A stretch of 64,000 bases of DNA, taken from NCBI GenBank assembly GCA_041694355.1, contig JASMTK010000012.1, forward strand, positions 11,201 to 75,200, given 5' to 3'. The translations under genes were made by a program, and so were the position numbers. Position 1 is the stretch's first letter; every line of letters begins with the position of its first letter. This document shows, in pieces, positions 2 to 16,072 of the stretch. Under the pieces are notes generated by a model, which was not told the DNA's origin, did no database searches, and was given only the letters and a program-made list of their open reading frames with translations. Source of the DNA: Arcobacteraceae bacterium. GTDB taxonomy: Bacteria > Campylobacterota > Campylobacteria > Campylobacterales > Arcobacteraceae.

Positions 2-454
2 CTAATCTTCTATGCTTCTCCTTTTCATGATTTGGGAAAAGTTGGAATTGAAGATAAGATTCTTTTAAAACCTGGTAAGCTAGATAATGATGAATATACA
101 ATTATGAAAGAGCATGCAAATATTGGATATGAGATTTTAAAAGATTCACAAAGTGAATACTTAAAAGCTGGTGCAATTATCGCTAAAGATCATCACGAAA
201 AGTATAATGGCCTTGGCTATCCTGAGGGTAAAAAAGGTGAAGACATCCATATATTTGGAAGAATTGTAGCTATTGTTGATGTGTTTGATGCACTAACATC
301 ATCAAGACCTTATAAAAGAGCTTGGACTTTTGAAGAGGCTGTAAATTTACTTATCGAAGAAAAAGGTAAACATTTTGATCCTAAACTAATTGATTTGTTT
401 GTTGAAAACCTTGATGAAGTAAAAGAGATATATAAATCATTTGATTTAGATTAA
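2..454 (+). CDS. HD-GYP domain c-di-GMP phosphodiesterase, 5'-truncated by the window edge
   Basis: Frame is open from base 2 (LIFYASPFHDLGKVG), so the HD motif lies upstream of the ORF-track start; HHEKYNGLGYPEG and DVFDAL motifs. Confidence 0.88.
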   Translation, partial: LIFYASPFHDLGKVGIEDKILLKPGKLDNDEYTIMKEHANIGYEILKDSQSEYLKAGAIIAKDHHEKYNGLGYPEGKKGEDIHIFGRIVAIVDVFDALTSSRPYKRAWTFEEAVNLLIEEKGKHFDPKLIDLFVENLDEVKEIYKSFDLD

Positions 455-467
455 GGAAAACTATATT

Positions 468-3400
468 ATGAAAAAACTTATTTCACCTTTTTTAAACCCA
501 TATATTGGTCCAATAATTGTAATAACTTTAGTTGTTGCTTATCTAGTAATCTTTGAAATTCCAAAATATTCAGAAAAAAATAAAAAAGAGTCTATGACTC
601 AAAAAGCTATTAGTGTTGTTGAAAATCTAAAGAAGACAAGAAGTTACTATACTACTTATGTAATAAACGATATTAAGAAACAAACAGATATTAGAATCAA
701 TTATGACCATGAAGAAAGAAAAGATACTATACCTTTACCTGCTACATTAGTTCATGACTTAAGTACAATTCTTCCTGAAAATGATATGAAAATTAAAATG
801 TTTAGTAACTATCCTTTCCCTAATAGAAAAGACAGAGTTTTAGATGAATTTGAAAAAGAGTCTTTAGCTTGGCTTGTAAATAATCCAGATGATATTTATA
901 CTAAAACAATTGAAAAAAACAAAGATGAAAAAATCTTTAAAGTAGCAGTTGCAGATGTATTTTACAACAACGGATGTGTTCAGTGTCACAATACAAGAGC
1001 AGATACTCCAAAAGATGACTGGGAACTTGGTGATGTAAGAGGGATAATTGAAGTTACTATTCCTTACTCAAAAGAGTTTATTTTATCAAGTAGACAAACT
1101 CTTTATTTAATAGCTATCTTAATAATTTTCATTCTAGCACTTGGGATTCACTATAGTGTTATTTCATTTATAAGACAAAAAGATTATAAAAGAAATAAAA
1201 AAATATTAGAAGAAGAAGTAGCAAATAGGACAAAAACACTAAAAGATACAAATAAACTACTAAACGAATACAAAAAAGCAGTTGATACTAGTGCTATTGT
1301 TTCAAAAACAAATAAAGATGGATTAATAACATACGTAAATGATGAATTTATAAAAATTTCACAATACACAAGAAATGAACTATTAAGAAGAAGTCATAAT
1401 ATAGTAAGACACCCTGATATGAGTGATGAATTTTTCAAAGACTTATGGGATACAATAAACAATAAAAAGATTTGGAAAGGACAAATAAAAAATAGAGCTA
1501 AAGATGGTTCAGCTTATTATGTGGCCTCTACAATAGTTCCTATTTTAAACTCTGATGATGAGATAGAAGAGTTTTTAGCTATTAGATTAGATATTACTGA
1601 TGTTATAAATTCACAAATCAAAGCACAAAGAGCAGATGAAGCAAAATCCACATTCTTAGCTAATATTAGTCATGAGATTAGAACTCCACTAAATGCAATT
1701 ATTGGTTTTTCTGATATCTTATGTAAAACAAAGCATTTGGATACACAAACTAAAAAACAAGCGAATATTATTCAGACAAGTGCAAACTCTCTACTTGGAA
1801 TAATTAATGATATTTTAGATGTATCAAAAATAGAAAGTGGAAACTTTGAAATAGCAATTGAGAATACAGATATATACTATATTAGTGAACATGTTGTTGA
1901 ATTATTCTCTAAGAGAGCTATAGAGAAGCATATAAAATTAGTATTTGATTTAGATAATAAAATACCTATGTGTTTAAAAACAGATGGAGTTAGAGTAAGA
2001 CAAGTTTTATCAAATCTATTAAGTAATGCAATTAAATTTACTCCCGAACATGGAAAGATAGAGCTTAATATAAATCAAGTTAACAAAGATGAAAATACTA
2101 CAACCATTAGATTTGAGGTTAAAGATACAGGTATTGGAATACCAAAAGAGAAGCTAGATAATGTCTTTAAACCTTTTGTACAAGTTGATCATAAATCAAA
2201 TAGACAATTTGAGGGAACTGGACTTGGACTTAGTATTAGTTCTCACATAATAGACTCACTTGGTTCAAAAATAAATATTGAAAGTCAAGTTGGTACAGGT
2301 ACTAAGTTTTGGTTTGATTTGACACTTGAAATTTGTGATGATGCTATACATACAAATAAAGAGTACTCTAGTCAAATAAGTTTTAAATTTGATGATATCA
2401 ATAGTGATTTATACCATTATGCAAAAAGATATTTAAACATATTTGGAACAATAAACAACGAAAATGAAAATAAAAACATCATAAAAGTTCTTACTAGTAA
2501 TGATTTAAAAAACAGTAAACTTCAAAAGCTAAGAGAAGAAGAACCAAATACTTTAAAACTTATTCTTTTAGAGTACGAAGAGTCTTTAGATGAACTAACG
2601 CTTTATGAAAATGAGCAAGGTTTAGCATTGCCATTTTATGCTTCAAAAATAAATGATGCCCTTCAAGAGCTACTAAATATAAAAAATGAAGCATTACAAA
2701 TAGAAGAAAATATTGACTTTGATTCTTTTGAAGGAAGAGTGTTAGTAGCAGAAGACAATCCTGCGAATCAAGAACTTATATCTTTTATTCTTAAAAATTT
2801 TGAAGTTGATTTTGATTTAGCAAGCAATGGAAAAGAGGCCTTTGACTTATATAGAAACAACTCTTATGATATGATTCTAATGGATATAAATATGCCAATT
2901 ATGGATGGAATTGAAGCTTTTAATTCTATTAGAAAATTTGAGAGTGAAAATACTATCTCTTCAACTCCTATCATTGCTTTAACAGCAAATGCGATTAAAG
3001 GTGATAAAGAGAAGTTCTTAAAACTTGGTATGAATGACTATTTAAGCAAACCTATAAATACTGATGAATTAAAAAGTATATTTAATAAGTTTTTAACTGC
3101 TAGTAACAAAGATATAAAAAGTGATAAAACAAAAGAAGAAATAACTAAACAAGCAGAAGTAAATACATCTAATGAAGTAATTTCAACAGATGCGGTTGCT
3201 AAAAAACTTGGTATATCTTCAACAGTTGCTAATATGATTATTCAGAAGTTCAAAGATGAAATCATAAAAGATTTAGATGAACTAAATTCATTTATTGAAA
3301 CTAACGATATCAAAAATAGAGTAGATAAAGCTCATTATATTAAGAACTCATGTTTAAATATGGCCTTAGATGATATTTGTGAGCTACTTCAATCACTTGA

Positions 3401-3482
3401 AGACTCAAGCTTAAGCAAAGATGACTCAAAGGAAGTATCTACAAAAATATATGCTAATATAGAAAATATGATAAAGGAGTAA
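468..3482 (+). CDS. Membrane hybrid histidine kinase: periplasmic c-heme (Tll0287/DUF3365-like) domain, PAS, HisKA, HATPase, REC, Hpt
   Basis: Two TM segments flank CVQCH (975-989); H-box SHEIRT; N, G1 and G2 boxes; REC LMDINMP; C-terminal AHYIKNS Hpt-like motif. Confidence 0.88.
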   Translation: MKKLISPFLNPYIGPIIVITLVVAYLVIFEIPKYSEKNKKESMTQKAISVVENLKKTRSYYTTYVINDIKKQTDIRINYDHEERKDTIPLPATLVHDLSTILPENDMKIKMFSNYPFPNRKDRVLDEFEKESLAWLVNNPDDIYTKTIEKNKDEKIFKVAVADVFYNNGCVQCHNTRADTPKDDWELGDVRGIIEVTIPYSKEFILSSRQTLYLIAILIIFILALGIHYSVISFIRQKDYKRNKKILEEEVANRTKTLKDTNKLLNEYKKAVDTSAIVSKTNKDGLITYVNDEFIKISQYTRNELLRRSHNIVRHPDMSDEFFKDLWDTINNKKIWKGQIKNRAKDGSAYYVASTIVPILNSDDEIEEFLAIRLDITDVINSQIKAQRADEAKSTFLANISHEIRTPLNAIIGFSDILCKTKHLDTQTKKQANIIQTSANSLLGIINDILDVSKIESGNFEIAIENTDIYYISEHVVELFSKRAIEKHIKLVFDLDNKIPMCLKTDGVRVRQVLSNLLSNAIKFTPEHGKIELNINQVNKDENTTTIRFEVKDTGIGIPKEKLDNVFKPFVQVDHKSNRQFEGTGLGLSISSHIIDSLGSKINIESQVGTGTKFWFDLTLEICDDAIHTNKEYSSQISFKFDDINSDLYHYAKRYLNIFGTINNENENKNIIKVLTSNDLKNSKLQKLREEEPNTLKLILLEYEESLDELTLYENEQGLALPFYASKINDALQELLNIKNEALQIEENIDFDSFEGRVLVAEDNPANQELISFILKNFEVDFDLASNGKEAFDLYRNNSYDMILMDINMPIMDGIEAFNSIRKFESENTISSTPIIALTANAIKGDKEKFLKLGMNDYLSKPINTDELKSIFNKFLTASNKDIKSDKTKEEITKQAEVNTSNEVISTDAVAKKLGISSTVANMIIQKFKDEIIKDLDELNSFIETNDIKNRVDKAHYIKNSCLNMALDDICELLQSLEDSSLSKDDSKEVSTKIYANIENMIKE

Positions 3483-3484
3483 TT

Positions 3485-4024
3485 ATGAGAGGTGTGATTT
3501 TTACAGAGATGATTGAGTTTGTTGAGGATGCACTTGGATTTGAAGTTGCAGATAAAATGATAGAAAAAGCACACTTAGATAATCACGGTGCTTTTTCTCA
3601 AGGAGGGAATTACCCTTTTGACCAAATGGTAAAAATGCTAACAGCTTTATCTGAAATAACAAAAAAAGAACCAAATGAGCTTCTTTATATATTTGGTAGA
3701 CATCTATTTTCTATTTTGGTAAAACTATATGGAAAAGATATAAAAAGTGCTGGGAATGCTTTAGACTTTATTGATAGTGTTGAAGACTATGTACACGTTG
3801 AAGTTAAAAAACTTTATCCTGATGCTGATTTACCAACATTTAAAACAATAGAAAAAAGTGATGATATTTTGATATTACACTATAAATCAGAGAAAAAACT
3901 TGAAGCCTTCGCCCATGGTTTAATTGAAGCTTGTGGAGAATATTTCAATGAACCTTTTAATGTAGAATACAAAACTATAAAAGATACTCCCCATACAGTT
4001 GAGTTTAAAATAGAAAGAAAATAG
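3485..4024 (+). CDS. Stand-alone H-NOX (heme NO/O2-binding) protein
   Basis: MRGVIFTE start; proximal His in VHVEVKKLYPDADLP; YxSxR-type motif read as YKSEK; 179 aa; SD AAGGAG. Confidence 0.88.
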   Translation: MRGVIFTEMIEFVEDALGFEVADKMIEKAHLDNHGAFSQGGNYPFDQMVKMLTALSEITKKEPNELLYIFGRHLFSILVKLYGKDIKSAGNALDFIDSVEDYVHVEVKKLYPDADLPTFKTIEKSDDILILHYKSEKKLEAFAHGLIEACGEYFNEPFNVEYKTIKDTPHTVEFKIERK

Positions 4025-4026
4025 CA

Positions 4027-5352
4027 ATGTCTGAAGAACATAATCCCTGGAAAAAAAGATTTGAAAGAGAAAGATTAGCTAGAAAAAATAGTGAAAGACT
4101 CTTAGAGGAAAAAAGCTTTGAACTATGGCAAGCGAATCAAGAACTTGAAAAACAAGTTCAACAACGTACAGAATCTTTAAAACAAGCATTATTGGAAACT
4201 CAAAAAGCAAATAGAGCAAAATCTGACTTTTTAGCAAATATGAGTAATGAGATTAGAACACCCTTAAACGGTATAATTGGTTTTTCAAAATATTTAAATG
4301 ATTCAAATCACTTAAACAATCAAGATAAAAAATATGCCTCTATTATTGAAACTAGTGCAAACTCATTACTTTGTATCATAAACGATATCTTAGACTTTTC
4401 AAAAATTGAAAGTGGTAACTTTCAAATATCTATTGATGAGGGTAATATTAAGAAAATAGCAAAAGAAACAATTGAACTATTTTCAACTAAAGCAAGAGAA
4501 AAAGAGATAATATTAGATCTTAAAATAGATGATGAAATTCCAGATAATATAAATAGTGACTTGCTAAGATTGAAACAGGTTATATCAAATCTAATATCAA
4601 ATGCTATAAAATTCACAAATGAAAATGGTAATGTAAAAGTAAAGCTTAGTTTGCAAAATAAAGATGATAGTTACTGTAAAATCAAAGTAGTAGTAGAAGA
4701 TAACGGTATAGGTATACCAAAAGATAAACTTGATTCAATACTAAATCCTTTTATTCAATTAGAAAACATTTCAAATAAGCAGCACACAGGTACAGGTTTA
4801 GGACTTAGTATATGTTCTAATATATTAAAACTTATGCACTCAGAACTACAAGTAGAGAGTAAAGAAAATATTGGTACCTCTTTTAGTTTTGAACTTGAAT
4901 GTAGTTATAACAAAAATAGTGAAATAGAAAAAGTAGAAAAAACTTCATTTGTAAAAGAAAGTAAAAAAGAGTTTTCAGAAAAAATCTTGTTAGCAGAAGA
5001 TAATTTGATTAACCAAGAACTTATGAAAGCTGTACTTCAAAGTTTAAAAGTGCAGTTTGAAATTGTCTCTAATGGTAAAGAGTGTTTAGAAGAGTACTGT
5101 AAAAACCATAAGTATTATAAACTAATTTTAATGGACATAAATATGCCTATTATGGATGGATTAGATGCTTTAAAGCAGATAAGAGCTTTTGAAAAAAAAG
5201 AGAGAATAGAAAGCATAAATATAATTGCATTGACAGCAAATGCTATTAAAGGTGACGAAGAAAAATATTTAAATCAAGGTATGAATGGATACTTAAGTAA
5301 ACCTATTAACACAGAAAAATTAAAAACTATTTTAGATAAATTTTTGAAATAA
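4027..5352 (+). CDS. Cytoplasmic H-NOX-associated hybrid kinase-like protein with H-box His replaced by Asn
   Basis: N-terminal RERLARKNSERLLEEK coiled coil; H-box reads SNEIRT (AAT at 4246-4248); HATPase boxes and REC LMDINMP intact. Confidence 0.85.
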   Translation: MSEEHNPWKKRFERERLARKNSERLLEEKSFELWQANQELEKQVQQRTESLKQALLETQKANRAKSDFLANMSNEIRTPLNGIIGFSKYLNDSNHLNNQDKKYASIIETSANSLLCIINDILDFSKIESGNFQISIDEGNIKKIAKETIELFSTKAREKEIILDLKIDDEIPDNINSDLLRLKQVISNLISNAIKFTNENGNVKVKLSLQNKDDSYCKIKVVVEDNGIGIPKDKLDSILNPFIQLENISNKQHTGTGLGLSICSNILKLMHSELQVESKENIGTSFSFELECSYNKNSEIEKVEKTSFVKESKKEFSEKILLAEDNLINQELMKAVLQSLKVQFEIVSNGKECLEEYCKNHKYYKLILMDINMPIMDGLDALKQIRAFEKKERIESINIIALTANAIKGDEEKYLNQGMNGYLSKPINTEKLKTILDKFLK

Positions 5353-5451: not shown

Positions 5452-5961
5452 ATGTCAAAAATTGGTATTTTAGTTGCAAGTGCAAATAACAATAGAAAAT
5501 TAGGTAACAAATTAAAAGATATTGCAAATGAGTTAGGTCATGAAGTTGAATTAATAAATTTAGTTGATTTAGATCTACCTCTTTACAGTACAGTAGAAGA
5601 AGAGAAAAATGGAATCCCTGAAACTGTTTTAGATCTTACAAATCATATTTTAGATTTAAAAGCCTTTATAATTGTTGCTCCTGAGTATAATGGTGTTATG
5701 CCTCCTGTATTAAATAACGCAATGGCTTGGACATCAAGAAGTACAGAGCACTGGAGAGATGCATTTAATGAAAAAGTTGTAGCACTAGCTACACACAGTG
5801 GTGGTGGCGGAGCTAAGGGGCTTCAAGCTATGAGAATTATGTATCAACACTTAGGTGCAAATATTTTAGCAAGAGAAATACTAACAACATATCAAAAACC
5901 GTTAGATGAAGATACTGCTAAGAATATAATTAAGCAACTAGCTAAGTTATCAGAAGTTTAG
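5452..5961 (+). CDS. NADPH-dependent FMN reductase family flavoprotein
   Basis: APEYNGVMPPVLNNA and ATHSGGGG motifs. Confidence 0.85.
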   Translation: MSKIGILVASANNNRKLGNKLKDIANELGHEVELINLVDLDLPLYSTVEEEKNGIPETVLDLTNHILDLKAFIIVAPEYNGVMPPVLNNAMAWTSRSTEHWRDAFNEKVVALATHSGGGGAKGLQAMRIMYQHLGANILAREILTTYQKPLDEDTAKNIIKQLAKLSEV

Positions 5962-7665: not shown

Positions 7666-9048
7666 ATGAAAGATAAAGTATATGTATTAGACACAAACAT
7701 AATATTGCAAAATATTCAAAATCTTAATAAAATTTCTGATAAAAAAACAAATACAATAATAATCCCAGAAACAGTACTATTAGAACTTGAAGACAAGAAA
7801 AAGCTGACAAATGAGTTAGGTTTTTACTCTAGAGAATTTGCAAGATTACTAGCAAAGATGAAGATAAAAGAGGTTGATTATAAAACAGGTTATAAAGTTG
7901 TAAAATTTTACAATGATGATTTAGATTTGCATATAATCTCAAAAGATACCTATGAAACAGAAATTGAACAAGTGCATATAAGTGAAAGCAACGATAAAAG
8001 AATAATTGAGGTTGCATCCATAGCACAGGAGTATTACAAAGGCTATCAAGCTATTTTCTTATCACTTGATGTTTATGCAAGAACATTTGCTCTTTTTAAA
8101 GGTATAAAAACTGAAACTTTACATGAAGATAAATCAACAGTACCAAACTTTGAGTTTTTAAAAAAACTAGAATTAGATTCATCTTGTTTTAACAGTTTAG
8201 AAAAAAAAGATATTTTATCAATAGACAAAGAGTATACACCTCAAAACTTCTCTTATAATTTTGAAAGTTCTGATGGGAATTGTACTTTTGCTATTGTTTA
8301 CAACAATAAACTTGACTTACTAAAAGAGTCAGATTTTAAAAATCTAAATATAAAACCAGTAAATCTAAAACAGAAGCTTTTTACAAAAGCTATTTTATCA
8401 AATATGTATGATTTATTAGTAATAGATGCAAAAGCTGGTAGTGGTAAAACACTTATGTCATTAGCTAGTGCTATGAGACTTATAGATTTAGGAGCATATG
8501 ATAAGATTGTTTATGTTAGAAACTCTATAGAGTCACTTGATAAGGGTGCTGATGTGGGTTACCTAGCTGGAAATGATGAAAAATTTAGAGTTTACAATAT
8601 GGCTTTATATGATACATTAGAGTTTATTGCAAAAAAACAACTTAAAAAAAGTGAAAATAGAGAGAACCAAGAATCAATAGAATCAAAAATCAATGAGATG
8701 CAATCTAAGTATTGTATTGAAACATTATGGCCAGGAGAAGCAAGAGGTAGAACACTATCTGGTGCTATTGTGATAATGGATGAATGGCAAAATAGTTCAG
8801 AAAAAACTACGCAATTAATTCTATCAAGACTTGATGAATCTTGTATGGCTATTGTAATTGGTTCAAATCGTCAAATCGATAATTTATATTTAAATAAATA
8901 TAATAATGGTCTAACAACTTTACTTAAACAAACTAAAGTTAAACATGATGAACTTAAGATGTTTGCTATTGAGTTAGATAAAGCTGTTAGAGGTAAATTT
9001 GCACAATTTACAGAAAGAATTTTTGAAAAGAAAAACAATAACAACTAA
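7666..9048 (+). CDS. PIN-PhoH (PhoH2-type) RNase/ATPase
   Basis: N-terminal PIN motifs (VLDTN, ELE, SND, SLD); Walker A AGSGKT; RGRT; DEWQN. Confidence 0.9.
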   Translation: MKDKVYVLDTNIILQNIQNLNKISDKKTNTIIIPETVLLELEDKKKLTNELGFYSREFARLLAKMKIKEVDYKTGYKVVKFYNDDLDLHIISKDTYETEIEQVHISESNDKRIIEVASIAQEYYKGYQAIFLSLDVYARTFALFKGIKTETLHEDKSTVPNFEFLKKLELDSSCFNSLEKKDILSIDKEYTPQNFSYNFESSDGNCTFAIVYNNKLDLLKESDFKNLNIKPVNLKQKLFTKAILSNMYDLLVIDAKAGSGKTLMSLASAMRLIDLGAYDKIVYVRNSIESLDKGADVGYLAGNDEKFRVYNMALYDTLEFIAKKQLKKSENRENQESIESKINEMQSKYCIETLWPGEARGRTLSGAIVIMDEWQNSSEKTTQLILSRLDESCMAIVIGSNRQIDNLYLNKYNNGLTTLLKQTKVKHDELKMFAIELDKAVRGKFAQFTERIFEKKNNNN

Positions 9049-9058
9049 GGAATAAAAA

Positions 9059-10738
9059 ATACAAAATAGATTAATAAATGACACAATTTATAGTCACATA
9101 GAATATACAAAGCTTGAAGATAAAATTCTTCAAACAAAAACAGTTAATAGATTACAGTTTATAACTCAAAATGCATTAGCATATTTCTCTTATCCATCAA
9201 TTACGACTAAGAGATTTATACACTCTTTAGGGACAATGCATTTAGCTTCATTTATGTTTAAAAACTCTCTTTTAAATGCAAACAAAAGCGCTAAAAACTC
9301 TTTCTTGGATGAACTAAAAGAGGTGATTTATAAAATAATAAAAGAGGATAATTTAAAACTTGATTTAAAAGATATGGAGTATTTTGATAATAAAGCTTTA
9401 TATCAATTTAATATCCCAACGAAATCAAAATCCCATAGAGCAGCATACTGTATTGTTTTACAAACTATTAGAATAGTAGGTTTGCTTCACGATGTGGGTC
9501 ATTTACCTTTTTCTCACCAAATAGAATATGCCTTAAAAAAAGTTTACTATAAAATCATAGAAAAAGAGAAAAACAATGAAGCACTTTTAGGAAGAGAAGT
9601 AGAGTTTAAAAATACTTATGAAGAGATTACAGATTTTACAAACAATGTACTTCACGAAGCAATAGGAAATGAACTTTTAAAATTATTATTTAGATATGAA
9701 TTAAAAGATTTAATCAAGAAAAATGTAGATAAAGAGTACATAAAACTTATTGAAAGACTATCTTTACTTATACTTGAAGAAGAGACTTACAACGGCTTTG
9801 ATTTTAAGGTTTTACATAATTACATTGATAGTACAGTAGATGCAGATAGATTAGATTATGTAAATAGAGATATGTTAGCAAGTGGTTATATAACAGGTCC
9901 AAGTGATCATATCAGAATCACGAAACAGACAGTTTTAGTAAAACATAATGATAAATTTGTATTAAGCTTTTTTGATATGGCACTGATTGATATTGAGCAT
10001 ATGTTAGAAATGAGATTTAATCTTTATAAAAAAGTTATCTATAATCATGGAATTGCTAAAACAGATGCACTTTTAGAAAATGTGGTTCAATATCTTTCAA
10101 ATAACTATTTTAACAATAGAATTAATTCTGCAAATGGTGAAGATAATATCTCAATGCTTTGGAACTTTAAAAAAGATGATACTGAAAGAGAGTTAGATAC
10201 TATTTCTTTACTAGATGAGAACTGGCTAATCTCACTTTTCAAAAAAGAGTATTTTTTTATAAAAGAGAAACAAAAACAAACAGCTAGAGATAAAAAATAC
10301 CTTTATTGCTTTGAAGAGGTTTTATTTGGGAAAAGAAGGTTTAAATCCCACTGGAAAAACCTAAATGAATTCTATAAAGAGTTGGGGTTTGAAACGGTAC
10401 AAAGATATAAGTTTAGAGAGAGTTTTGGATATATTACAGAACATAGAGCAAAAGTTCTTCAAAAAGAGCTTGATGAGTTTACTAAAAGATGGGAAGATAA
10501 AAAAGAGGATATTTTCTTTACATATCAGATTGTATCATTTAAGATTGGTATTCAAAAAGACTTTTGTTTATTTGATGGTGAAAACCTAATAAACATCGAT
10601 GAAGTGTCAACTTTAAGAAAAAGACTTAAACACTCGATGCTAAATACTGTTCCTTTTTATATTTACTCAAATAAGAAAAACCTAAATGAAAAAATGAAAA
10701 AAGAGTTAAAAGAGATTATTTTAAAAATCTTCTCTTAA
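9059..10738 (+). CDS. SAMHD1/COG1078-like HD phosphohydrolase, probable ATA start (559 aa)
   Basis: Conserved N-terminus (NDTIYSHIE...RLQFITQ...YPS...RFIHSLG) lies upstream of the ORF-track Met 9236; LLHDVGH; DADRLDYVNRD; SD AAGGA 7 nt before ATA 9059; in-frame TAA at 9053-9055. Confidence 0.85.
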   Translation: MQNRLINDTIYSHIEYTKLEDKILQTKTVNRLQFITQNALAYFSYPSITTKRFIHSLGTMHLASFMFKNSLLNANKSAKNSFLDELKEVIYKIIKEDNLKLDLKDMEYFDNKALYQFNIPTKSKSHRAAYCIVLQTIRIVGLLHDVGHLPFSHQIEYALKKVYYKIIEKEKNNEALLGREVEFKNTYEEITDFTNNVLHEAIGNELLKLLFRYELKDLIKKNVDKEYIKLIERLSLLILEEETYNGFDFKVLHNYIDSTVDADRLDYVNRDMLASGYITGPSDHIRITKQTVLVKHNDKFVLSFFDMALIDIEHMLEMRFNLYKKVIYNHGIAKTDALLENVVQYLSNNYFNNRINSANGEDNISMLWNFKKDDTERELDTISLLDENWLISLFKKEYFFIKEKQKQTARDKKYLYCFEEVLFGKRRFKSHWKNLNEFYKELGFETVQRYKFRESFGYITEHRAKVLQKELDEFTKRWEDKKEDIFFTYQIVSFKIGIQKDFCLFDGENLINIDEVSTLRKRLKHSMLNTVPFYIYSNKKNLNEKMKKELKEIILKIFS

Positions 10739-10786
10739 TTCTTTAAAGAAGTTTTGATAAAATTCACCAAAAAATAAAGAGAGTTT

Positions 10787-11152
10787 ATGATTTTAGGTGA
10801 TTGTCCCTATTGTTCAGGAAAAGTTTTATCAAAAAATATAAATGTAAATGGTAAAAAAGTTAAGTTATATAGCTGTGAAAATTCAAAAAAAGAGTATGAT
10901 GAAAGTGAACAGTACGTTTTTTCAGCAGACTCAACTTGTAGATTTAGAGTCTATTCAAATGCTTTTAAAAGATGGAATAAAAGAAGTTTTAGTGAAAATG
11001 AGATGAAAAGACTTTTAAGAGAGCAGCAAGCTGTTGTAAGACTTCACGGTAGAAAAGGTACAAGTGAGTATTTCAAATATGTAATTCCCCATGAAGAGTA
11101 TGGAGTATCTATACTTTGGGAAGAAGAAGTAGAAGAGCAAGACACCTTTTAA
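10787..11152 (+). CDS. Small Cys-containing protein resembling a Zn-ribbon plus topoisomerase C-terminal repeat
   Basis: CPYC, further Cys residues, CRFRVY...SENEMKRLL pattern; own promoter TG-a-TAAAAT at 10755-10763. Confidence 0.5.
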   Translation: MILGDCPYCSGKVLSKNINVNGKKVKLYSCENSKKEYDESEQYVFSADSTCRFRVYSNAFKRWNKRSFSENEMKRLLREQQAVVRLHGRKGTSEYFKYVIPHEEYGVSILWEEEVEEQDTF

Positions 11153-11724
11153 AACAGGTGTCCAAAATGCTCTTTTTTTGTATTTATATAATTTTCGTTG
11201 TATTCATTCAACTGGGTTATAGCTGGAATCCTCTTTACTATTGTAACTCCAATTGACTCAACAAAATTGATTTTCTCAGGATTATTTGTGATTAACTTTA
11301 GTTGTTTTATATCTAAGTCATTTAAAATATACTCAACTATACTATAATCTCTTTCATCCTCTTTAAAGCCTAATTCAATATTAGCTTCAACTGTATTTCT
11401 TCCTTGGTCTTGTAAAGCATAGGCATTTACTTTATTTAACAATCCAATATTTCTACCTTCTTGACGATGATAAATAACTAAACCACCCTCATTTGAGATA
11501 AAATCTAACGCTAAATTTAGTTGATTTTGACAATCACACTTTAAACTACCAAGTGCATCACCTGTAAGACATTCGCTATGAATTCTAACATAAGGAGCTT
11601 CTAATTTTTCAAATCCATCACTCATAATTGCTAAATGTTCTTGTTCATTTTGCTTATATGCTTTAATATAAAATTTACCATGTTTAGATGGAAGTTTTGC
11701 AATATTTGATTTTAATATTTCCAT
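11149..11724 (-). CDS. ribA: GTP cyclohydrolase II
   Basis: VRIHSECLTGDALGSLKCDC; QEGRNIGL; LITNNP. Confidence 0.96.
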   Translation of the reverse strand: MEILKSNIAKLPSKHGKFYIKAYKQNEQEHLAIMSDGFEKLEAPYVRIHSECLTGDALGSLKCDCQNQLNLALDFISNEGGLVIYHRQEGRNIGLLNKVNAYALQDQGRNTVEANIELGFKEDERDYSIVEYILNDLDIKQLKLITNNPEKINFVESIGVTIVKRIPAITQLNEYNENYINTKKEHFGHLF

Positions 11725-11821
11725 AATCTATTCTCATTTATAATTTTGCAACAAAGTTGCAATTATTAATTATATAGATTTTTTCTTAAATAAGAGTAAA
11801 AGTATCCTGTTTAGAAGAGTT

Positions 11822-14704: not shown

Positions 14705-16072
14705 TTACTTTTTGAAAACCCTAAAAAACTTCTTTTTAATTCTATTTTTTCTAAGACCATTGTATGCTTTAGATAGAACCTCTTTTTTAACAGCCACATA
14801 AGTACAAAAATCATAAGAAGTGATTTTTCCTATATCATTTTTATCAAGCCCTAACCCAGCTGTTAATGCACCTAAAATATCACCAGGTCTTAACTTCTGT
14901 TTTTTACCGCCATTTATATATAAAACCCTAAATTCACTATCTATTTCAAACTCATCATTTGCTTTTATATCGTCAAGTTTTCTAATAGACAAATCATCAA
15001 AAATCTCTTTTAATATCTCAACTTTATCAAAGTCTCTATTTTCATAAAAAGAGATAGCAACTCCACCTTTCCCTGCTCTAGCTGTTCTTCCTATTCTATG
15101 AGTATGAACTTTTTCATCTTTTGCTAAATCATAGTTTATAACTAAATCAATATCATCTATATGTAAACCTCTTGAAGCAACATCTGTAGCTATTAATACA
15201 GGATAAGATTTACTTGAAAATAGTGTTATTATCTCATCTCTTTCTCTTTGCTCTAAATCTGAATGTAATGTAAGTACATCAAGTCCCATATCAAAAAGTT
15301 CATCTGCTAACTCTTCACAAGTTATTTTCATATTACAAAAAATCAAAGTTGTTAAGGCTTGTTTCTCTCTTATAATTGAAGAGACAAATGAGGTTTTATT
15401 TTTATCTTGTAGATCAAATAACTCTTGTGTTATTTTTGCTTTTTCTTCATTTTTAACTTCAATCTGTACTGGATCAGTTAAAACAAATGAAGCAAGTTGT
15501 TTTATATTTTCCTCATAAGTTGCAGAGAACAACATAGTCTGTCTTTTTTTAGGAAGTGCTTCTATGATTTTTGAGATATCATCTAAAAACCCCATATCTA
15601 GCATCTTATCTGCTTCATCTAAAACTAATGTATCAAGATCATCAAAAGAGATATTCTCTTCATTTATATGTTGTAAAACTCTTCCTGGTGTTGCTACAAT
15701 AATATGAGCTCCGTGATACAATGAAGCTACTTGAGGCTTAAAAGGAACTCCACCTGTCAAAGTTAAAACTTTTACATTATGAATATGCCTAGATAACTTT
15801 CTAATTTCTTGTGCTATTTGATTTGCTAATTCTCTTGTTGGTGCTAAAACTAAAGATTGAATCCTAAATTTTTTAACATCAAGCTTTGTAACTATAGGAA
15901 TAGAAAAAGATACAGTTTTTCCAGAGCCTGTTTTTGCCCTTGCAATAATATCTTTATTTTGAAGACTATGTGGTAATGACAGTTCTTGAATCTCTGTCAT
16001 ATTTGTATAATCAAGAGTTTCTAAGTTTTTTAAAAACTCAGTGTTAAGTTTTAATTGTTTAAAAGTAGCTAT
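14705..16072 (-). CDS. dbpA: 23S rRNA-specific DEAD-box RNA helicase, probable ATA start (455 aa)
   Basis: AKTGSGKT; DEAD; SAT; HRIGRTAR; C-terminal GGKKQKLRPGDILGA RNA-binding domain; Q-motif region (FKQLKL...MTEIQ) upstream of ORF-track Met 16000; SD AAAGG 7 nt before ATA 16072. Confidence 0.9.
   Translation of the reverse strand: MATFKQLKLNTEFLKNLETLDYTNMTEIQELSLPHSLQNKDIIARAKTGSGKTVSFSIPIVTKLDVKKFRIQSLVLAPTRELANQIAQEIRKLSRHIHNVKVLTLTGGVPFKPQVASLYHGAHIIVATPGRVLQHINEENISFDDLDTLVLDEADKMLDMGFLDDISKIIEALPKKRQTMLFSATYEENIKQLASFVLTDPVQIEVKNEEKAKITQELFDLQDKNKTSFVSSIIREKQALTTLIFCNMKITCEELADELFDMGLDVLTLHSDLEQRERDEIITLFSSKSYPVLIATDVASRGLHIDDIDLVINYDLAKDEKVHTHRIGRTARAGKGGVAISFYENRDFDKVEILKEIFDDLSIRKLDDIKANDEFEIDSEFRVLYINGGKKQKLRPGDILGALTAGLGLDKNDIGKITSYDFCTYVAVKKEVLSKAYNGLRKNRIKKKFFRVFKK

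Follow-up and report, generated by a model that had tools for sequence, protein, structure and literature searches.

An asparagine private to one assembly at the phosphoacceptor position of an H-NOX-associated hybrid histidine kinase

The H-NOX operon and its two hybrid kinases

The stretch of DNA analysed here, called the window throughout, comprises 64,000 nucleotides of the Arcobacteraceae metagenome-assembled genome (MAG) G000 (positions 11201-75200 of its 105-kb contig C12), and the DNA upstream of it was taken from the same contig. Four tRNA genes are followed by REC-HD-GYP, HK1, H-NOX and HK2, the four genes of an operon with gaps of 2-13 nt between them, and then by a gene for an NADPH-dependent FMN reductase (Table 1). 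The reductase gene begins 100 nt 3' of HK2 and probably lies outside the operon; the same neighbour is found in the metagenome contig L031, in G001 and G004 and in contigs of the same species. The first operon gene starts 592 nt 5' of the window (C12 10608) and spans C12 10608-11654, its REC domain being found in the upstream half, outside the window.

Table 1. Operon features and the 3' neighbouring gene, in window coordinates
Feature	Position	Strand	Basis or remark
REC-HD-GYP, 3' part (HD-GYP domain), first operon gene	2..454	+	Pfam HD_5 9.3e-29
HK1, 1004-aa hybrid kinase, intact	468..3482	+	Pfam
HK1 His402, phosphoacceptor, CAT	1671..1673	+	paralogue used for comparison
H-NOX (HNOB) haem NO sensor, 179 aa, intact	3485..4024	+	Pfam PF07700 3.9e-38
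HK2, H-NOX-associated hybrid kinase, 441 aa	4027..5352	+	Pfam
HK2 Asn74, AAT at the phosphoacceptor position	4246..4248	+	CAT (His) in all other sequences examined
HK2 receiver Asp370 codon, retained	5134..5136	+	
NADPH-dependent FMN reductase gene	5452..5961	+	Pfam FMN_red 9.5e-27

HK1 consists of a signal/transmembrane segment, a Tll0287-like domain with a CVQCH c-haem motif, PAS, HisKA, HATPase_c, REC and HPt, in that order. Its H-box reads FLANISHEIRTP, and the phosphoacceptor His402, N520, the REC Asp806 and the HPt His956 (codon 3333-3335) are all invariant in comparison with the orthologues of G001 and G003. The H-NOX protein, of which the whole genome holds a single copy, was aligned with five orthologues and is 92% identical to the nearest; its proximal His104 and the residues Y133-x-S135-x-K137 are invariant in six orthologues. 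The haem-propionate motif formed by residues 133-137 (window 3881-3895) is accordingly Y-x-S-x-K in all six, the canonical motif of H-NOX domains being Y-x-S-x-R.

The start of HK2 at 4027 abuts the H-NOX stop at 4024 in the same orientation, and this pairing also occurs in L031, G001, G003, G004, G022 and the same-species contigs. Pfam assigned HisKA (residues 64-130), HATPase_c (178-291, 3.7e-27) and Response_reg (320-436) domains to HK2 and found no HPt. The first 60 residues are charged and coiled-coil-like with no hydrophobic segment, so that by Pfam and sequence HK2 is a soluble protein without a sensor or transmembrane domain of its own. Its H-box reads KSDFLANMSNEIRTPLNG, in which codon 74 is AAT and encodes asparagine. 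An earlier note on this DNA had described this codon as a single-base departure from the CAT of the upstream paralogue HK1, which is exact; the ancestral codon, taken from an 87% identical relative and the same-species contigs, is likewise one base away (C to A). The note had also reported that the ATP-binding boxes, the ExxT motif and the REC Asp are retained, and the catalytic residues other than the histidine were all located in HK2: E75 and T78 of the ExxT motif, N192 of the N-box, the G1 (D225xGxG) and G2 (G255xGxG) boxes, and D325, D370, T403 and K425 of the receiver pocket. The allele lacks the phosphoacceptor histidine of H-NOX-associated kinases, and the gene nevertheless belongs to that family. 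As in phosphorelay hybrid kinases, the HK2 receiver is complete and an HPt (His956) is available in trans on the adjacent HK1.

The operon core recurs in same-genus genomes. In G003 it consists of REC-HD-GYP, HK1, H-NOX and HK2, and G001, also of the same genus, has this order with a further kinase of 1261 aa between HK1 and H-NOX and with an HK2 that is 549 aa long and includes an HPt; G022, of a related genus in the same family, has a histidine kinase, H-NOX and an HK2 of 440 aa. Like G001, G004 has an additional hybrid kinase (about 1260 aa) between HK1 and H-NOX. HK2 orthologues come in two length forms, one of 437-445 aa without HPt and one of 547-555 aa, and for several of the longer homologues (547-555 aa) Hpt matches (PF01627) are recorded.

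Distribution of Asn74 and selection on HK2

The best 120 matches to HK2 from 5.8 billion proteins were used as the homologue set, and an H-box was recognisable in 107 of them. Histidine occupies the phosphoacceptor position in 106 of these 107 H-boxes, and the sole asparagine is that of the window's own protein. The nearest homologue (P0002, 87% amino acid identity), encoded with the same synteny on an ENA metagenome contig (L031), has the codon CAT. Logan contigs of the same species were retrieved by looking up exact copies of the two proteins encoded beside HK2, H-NOX and the FMN reductase, which yielded the H-NOX locus from five sequencing runs (SRR34869627 to SRR34869631). Codon 74 is CAT (His) in all five runs, at 99.3-99.6% nucleotide identity, and Asn74 is therefore private to one assembly, even within its species. 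The HK2 genes of four full-length same-species contigs differ from that of the window at 6-9 of 1326 bases, and the longest contig (7447 nt) is colinear with the MAG, with 43 differences (99.4% identity). A search of JGI metagenomes with a 62-nt near-exact pattern around codon 74 gave no matches.

To gauge the background frequency of such changes, 185,579 species, each represented by a single genome, were searched with the degenerate motif F-L-x-N-[MIV]-S-N-E-I-R-T-P, which gave ten cases (L052-L061). These come from unrelated phyla, none lies beside an H-NOX gene, all ten are in MAGs, and several are from contigs of 4-16x coverage. Variants of FLANMS?EIRT with a first-base change in the histidine codon, collected from JGI and ENA metagenomes (L062-L116), comprised 40 Tyr, nine Asn and six Asp, a ranking that places the transition over the transversions, as mutation alone predicts. 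Asparagine at the H-box histidine is a rare, sporadic state with no recurrent functional class.

Between the window and L031, dN/dS is 0.06 for H-NOX and 0.12 for HK2 (0.057 in the DHp region), the HK2 value covering the whole path to L031 and hence mostly time spent with histidine. After polarisation with 27 outgroups, H74N is the lone change on the window lineage at an invariant HK2 column, and the five other HK2 changes on this lineage are conservative (S/T, E/D, I/V, L/I and V/I). Tajima relative-rate tests with seven outgroups detected no asymmetry. A faster window branch, suggested by maximum-likelihood lengths of 0.133 versus 0.044, was rejected, as the root was set by an internal branch of 0.66 and the Tajima tests were symmetric. 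Comparison with the same-species contigs identified 32 substitutions private to the MAG in 7.4 kb, among which synonymous transitions predominate, indicating that the MAG strain is truly distinct from the strains in the five runs and is a separate lineage able to bear mutations of its own. Within HK2 the MAG-private changes are three synonymous and three non-synonymous (H74N, N204K and K275Q). No further decay was seen in HK2, H-NOX or HK1, and H74N is therefore recent; however, a low dN/dS does not separate a very recent change from selection for a kinase-independent role.

Such a role was the main proposal of the earlier note, which read HK2 as a pseudokinase that could act as an NO-regulated phosphatase, a phosphate sink or a partner in trans. 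In that case N74 HK2 would persist under H-NOX control as a partner without kinase activity, serving only as a phosphatase or as a phosphate sink, with Asp370 and the ExxT motif draining phosphate from HK1 and its HPt. The intact ATP-binding boxes, ExxT motif and receiver Asp and the low dN/dS are consistent with this, as is the HPt supplied next door by HK1, and non-autophosphorylating hybrid kinases such as RetS do serve as sinks and transmitter phosphatases (PMC5992135). However, the asparagine occurs in one assembly only and strains that are 99.5% identical have histidine, which leaves no time for selection on the asparagine state; RetS and DivL hold their peculiar states across orthologues and HK2 does not, and in BinK, a hybrid kinase that represses signalling, replacement of the His by Gln yields no more than a recessive null allele (bioRxiv 10.1101/2021.03.29.437627). 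The note had itself suggested asking whether orthologues share a fixed Asn, and had counted a change private to this isolate against its idea; with His in 106 homologues and in every same-species run the answer goes against the pseudokinase on both points, since Asn is not fixed in any lineage. We regard retention as a functional pseudokinase, and any maintained kinase-independent function of HK2, as very improbable, and Asn74 as an evolved or maintained pseudokinase feature is not supported. HK2 is best read as a canonical H-NOX-associated kinase of the hybrid HahK/HqsK type that carries a private C-to-A change of very recent origin. The note's fallback of a recent inactivating mutation agrees with the private Asn74 and with a second private lesion, in REC-HD-GYP.

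The REC-HD-GYP nonsense codon and the nature of the assembly

An in-frame TAA lies at C12 11103-11105, 95-97 nt before the first base of the window, between the REC and HD-GYP domains of the first operon gene. The two halves share one frame, which runs ...LGKTA, the stop, and then YKDPETASHVARVAHYSKM..., and a profile search of the genome flagged '1 TAA' inside the HD_5 match. GAA (Glu) occupies this site in G001, G003 and the same-species contigs L125 and L128 (from two runs), all of which encode an intact REC-HD-GYP of 346-348 aa (348 aa in the same species); the G000 sequence aligns with the same-genus orthologues of G001 and G003 in one piece, with 78% identity over 345 aa. The GAA-to-TAA change would sever the protein between its two domains, and RpfG-like proteins, in which REC and a complete HD-GYP form a single polypeptide, are not encoded by this assembly's allele. 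The next start codon is 18 codons past the TAA, after ...EYKDPETASH..., a stretch whose E...H residues we take, from HD-GYP structures, to be the first metal ligands. Because the restart codon lies beyond this predicted first metal-ligand stretch, the restart product, of 164 aa, is probably inactive. Through polarity, the early TAA might in addition reduce expression of the operon genes that follow it.

As a second private lesion, the nonsense codon points to decay or error and not to repurposing, and the truncation of the presumed output regulator in the same assembly is a further argument against a functional pseudokinase. Both operon lesions are single-base G:C-to-T:A changes and both appear very recent, the other parts of the operon being undecayed. 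Counting two knock-outs in one operon is, however, a post hoc tally, which weakens the case for inactivation.

The source of the sequence has a direct bearing on the choice between decay and error. G000 consists of 143 contigs, the shortest of 2.6 kb, and whole short contigs are paired at 91-94% nucleotide identity (C30/C32, C61/C100, C104/C105, C13/C42, C6/C122 and C49/C124). It is a MAG holding fragments of a second, related population, which accounts for its contamination estimate of 3.2%. Since it is not an isolate, laboratory adaptation is no explanation and consensus error has to be weighed.

Genes split by in-frame stops were sought throughout the genome, which gave 45 candidates, of which 18 were judged by Pfam and 20 by eye; the 20 examined by eye were rejected as ordinary adjacent genes. 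True splits among the candidates assessed were REC|HD-GYP, GGDEF|EAL, a TonB-dependent receptor and a porin. The HAMP-GGDEF-EAL gene (G000:C119 2304-4256; the GGDEF is degenerate, HADEY) has a TAA at 3525-3527, seven residues before EAL, where the codon is CAA (Gln) in the G022 orthologue, which is 61% identical and has an open frame of 663 aa. The porin-like outer-membrane protein gene (G000:C44 7958-9037) has a TAA at 8456-8458, where the same-species contig L127 has GAA, and the TonB-dependent receptor gene (G000:C135, about 9806-11791) has a TAA at 10241-10243, inside the span of its Pfam barrel domain. When the proteins encoded next to the EAL and TonB lesions were looked up by exact match, no same-species records were returned. 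Two genes of the window begin with ATA: an HD hydrolase (start at 9059-9061, + strand), which has ATA in all five relatives examined, and dbpA (start at 16070-16072, - strand), which has ATT in four same-genus genomes. These starts were considered as a sign of a mutation-ridden genome and rejected, as non-canonical starts are conserved in the relatives.

The main rival to a real mutation is an error of consensus or assembly, in which the organism has CAT and GAA and the MAG consensus took up miscalls or low-coverage minority variants, G:C-to-T:A miscalls being the class made by oxidised guanine in libraries. The co-binned contig pairs and the short contigs of the MAG are consistent with such an origin, and H74N, the HD-GYP nonsense codon and the porin nonsense codon are all G:C-to-T:A changes absent from the same-species contigs. 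The operon has three private G:C-to-T:A changes, each of them non-synonymous, whereas the other private changes are mostly synonymous, and the ten other SNEIRTP kinases, with their MAG origin and in several cases 4-16x coverage, fit the same pattern. However, coverage of the 105-kb contig C12 is probably adequate and a consensus built from short reads is rarely wrong; among the roughly 50 private differences at two loci just five are G:C-to-T:A, with no obvious excess, and in a genome of 29% G+C the G and C bases lie mostly at codon positions 1 and 2, where such changes are non-synonymous anyway. Consensus error is thus judged unlikely, though it deserves to be taken seriously. The reading towards which we incline, with modest confidence, is that the allele is real, private to this strain and a loss of function, and that the operon is undergoing inactivation or has ceased to be needed.

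Proposed signalling and comparison with known systems

In the systems that have been characterised, the kinase next to H-NOX is inhibited by the NO-bound form of the sensor. The phosphorelay of Shewanella and V. cholerae activates a phosphodiesterase and c-di-GMP falls, so that inhibition by NO leads to a rise, and V. fischeri HahK, a hybrid kinase encoded beside hnoX, is reported as likely to signal via the HPt on a second hybrid kinase, SypF (PMC8738867). By analogy, NO-bound H-NOX would have inhibited autophosphorylation of ancestral HK2, from which phosphate would have passed from His74 to Asp370, on to the HPt His956 of HK1 and finally to the receiver of REC-HD-GYP, setting the c-di-GMP level. 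H74N would be expected to abolish HK2 autophosphorylation and so to disconnect the H-NOX input. If both bases are real, the simplest reading is that the pathway is dead in this strain, although the receiver of Asn74 HK2 could in principle still drain phosphate from the HPt of HK1 in the manner of RetS.

Another rival reading is that the losses were adaptive, H74N and the HD-GYP and EAL nonsense codons having been selected to lock cells in a sessile state of high c-di-GMP. Pfam confirmed three nonsense-split genes, to which same-species sequence adds the porin as a fourth, and two of these encode c-di-GMP phosphodiesterases; the genome has about 10 HD-GYP and 21 EAL genes, estimated at roughly 2% of coding length, and silencing of an H-NOX kinase raises c-di-GMP in the Shewanella/Vibrio model (PMC8738867). 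However, the grouping is post hoc with n = 2-3, pseudogenes often arise in large redundant signalling families without selection, and the TonB-dependent receptor and the porin are broken too; the EAL lesion is backed by the comparison with G022, and the argument presumes the sign of HD-GYP regulation. Adaptive loss is therefore considered very improbable. A more elaborate version, in which Asn74 and the REC-HD-GYP and GGDEF-EAL nonsense codons are a real, linked and selected loss of NO-responsive c-di-GMP degradation and HK2 drains HK1 constitutively, mimicking the NO-bound state, is likewise very improbable. The preferred reading remains a private loss-of-function allele, and the missing histidine has little weight for signalling biology and is not an evolved feature. 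It carries a caution instead, that before a pseudoenzyme is called from one changed catalytic residue in a MAG, the residue should be compared with sequence from the same species; here exact-protein look-ups of neighbouring genes settled that Asn74 is private.

The tyrosine that replaces the phosphoacceptor histidine in DivL of Caulobacter crescentus is conserved across orthologues. Asn74, unlike it, is shared by none of the 106 homologues and none of the five same-species runs, and is absent even from strains that are 99.5% identical. DivL resembles HK2 in having a kinase fold without the phosphoacceptor His, the rest being retained, and its Tyr is part of a kinase that has been repurposed and maintained (PMC4211667). 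RetS of Pseudomonas aeruginosa, a non-autophosphorylating hybrid kinase that drains phosphate from GacS both as a sink and as a transmitter phosphatase, illustrates what a hybrid kinase without kinase activity might still do if its ExxT motif and receiver Asp are intact (PMC5992135). However, RetS is inactive through a degenerate ATPase domain, keeps its H-box His and represents a fixed, selected state, whereas HK2 has lost the His but retains an intact ATPase domain, in a state private to one assembly. Closest in the kind of substitution and in the residue affected are the His-to-Gln/Asn null alleles of the BinK H362Q type, which were made in the laboratory, while Asn74 of HK2 is either natural or a sequence error.

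In its architecture HK2 is most like HahK (Vibrio fischeri), HqsK (V. harveyi and V. parahaemolyticus) and HnoK (Shewanella oneidensis and V. cholerae), which are likewise cytoplasmic, sensorless and encoded directly after hnoX, and which share its core of HisKA, HATPase_c and REC with the HPt on another protein, as is reported for HahK with the SypF HPt (PMC8738867). H-NOX kinase systems also share with the HK2 operon a c-di-GMP phosphodiesterase as output. The present case differs from this group in the Asn at the phosphoacceptor position of the allele, in its host, an Arcobacteraceae MAG, and in a second hybrid kinase in the operon with a periplasmic c-haem Tll0287-like domain; its output is a REC-HD-GYP protein, as against the phosphodiesterase/inhibitor pair HnoB/HnoD of HnoK systems. 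The operon adds an Arcobacteraceae example, locally broken, to the known H-NOX/hybrid-kinase/c-di-GMP modules. The part of it worth biochemistry is the architecture of the intact same-species allele, in which the only HPt is borne by a periplasmic c-haem kinase, a cytoplasmic H-NOX is paired with a hybrid kinase that lacks an HPt, and REC-HD-GYP serves as the output.
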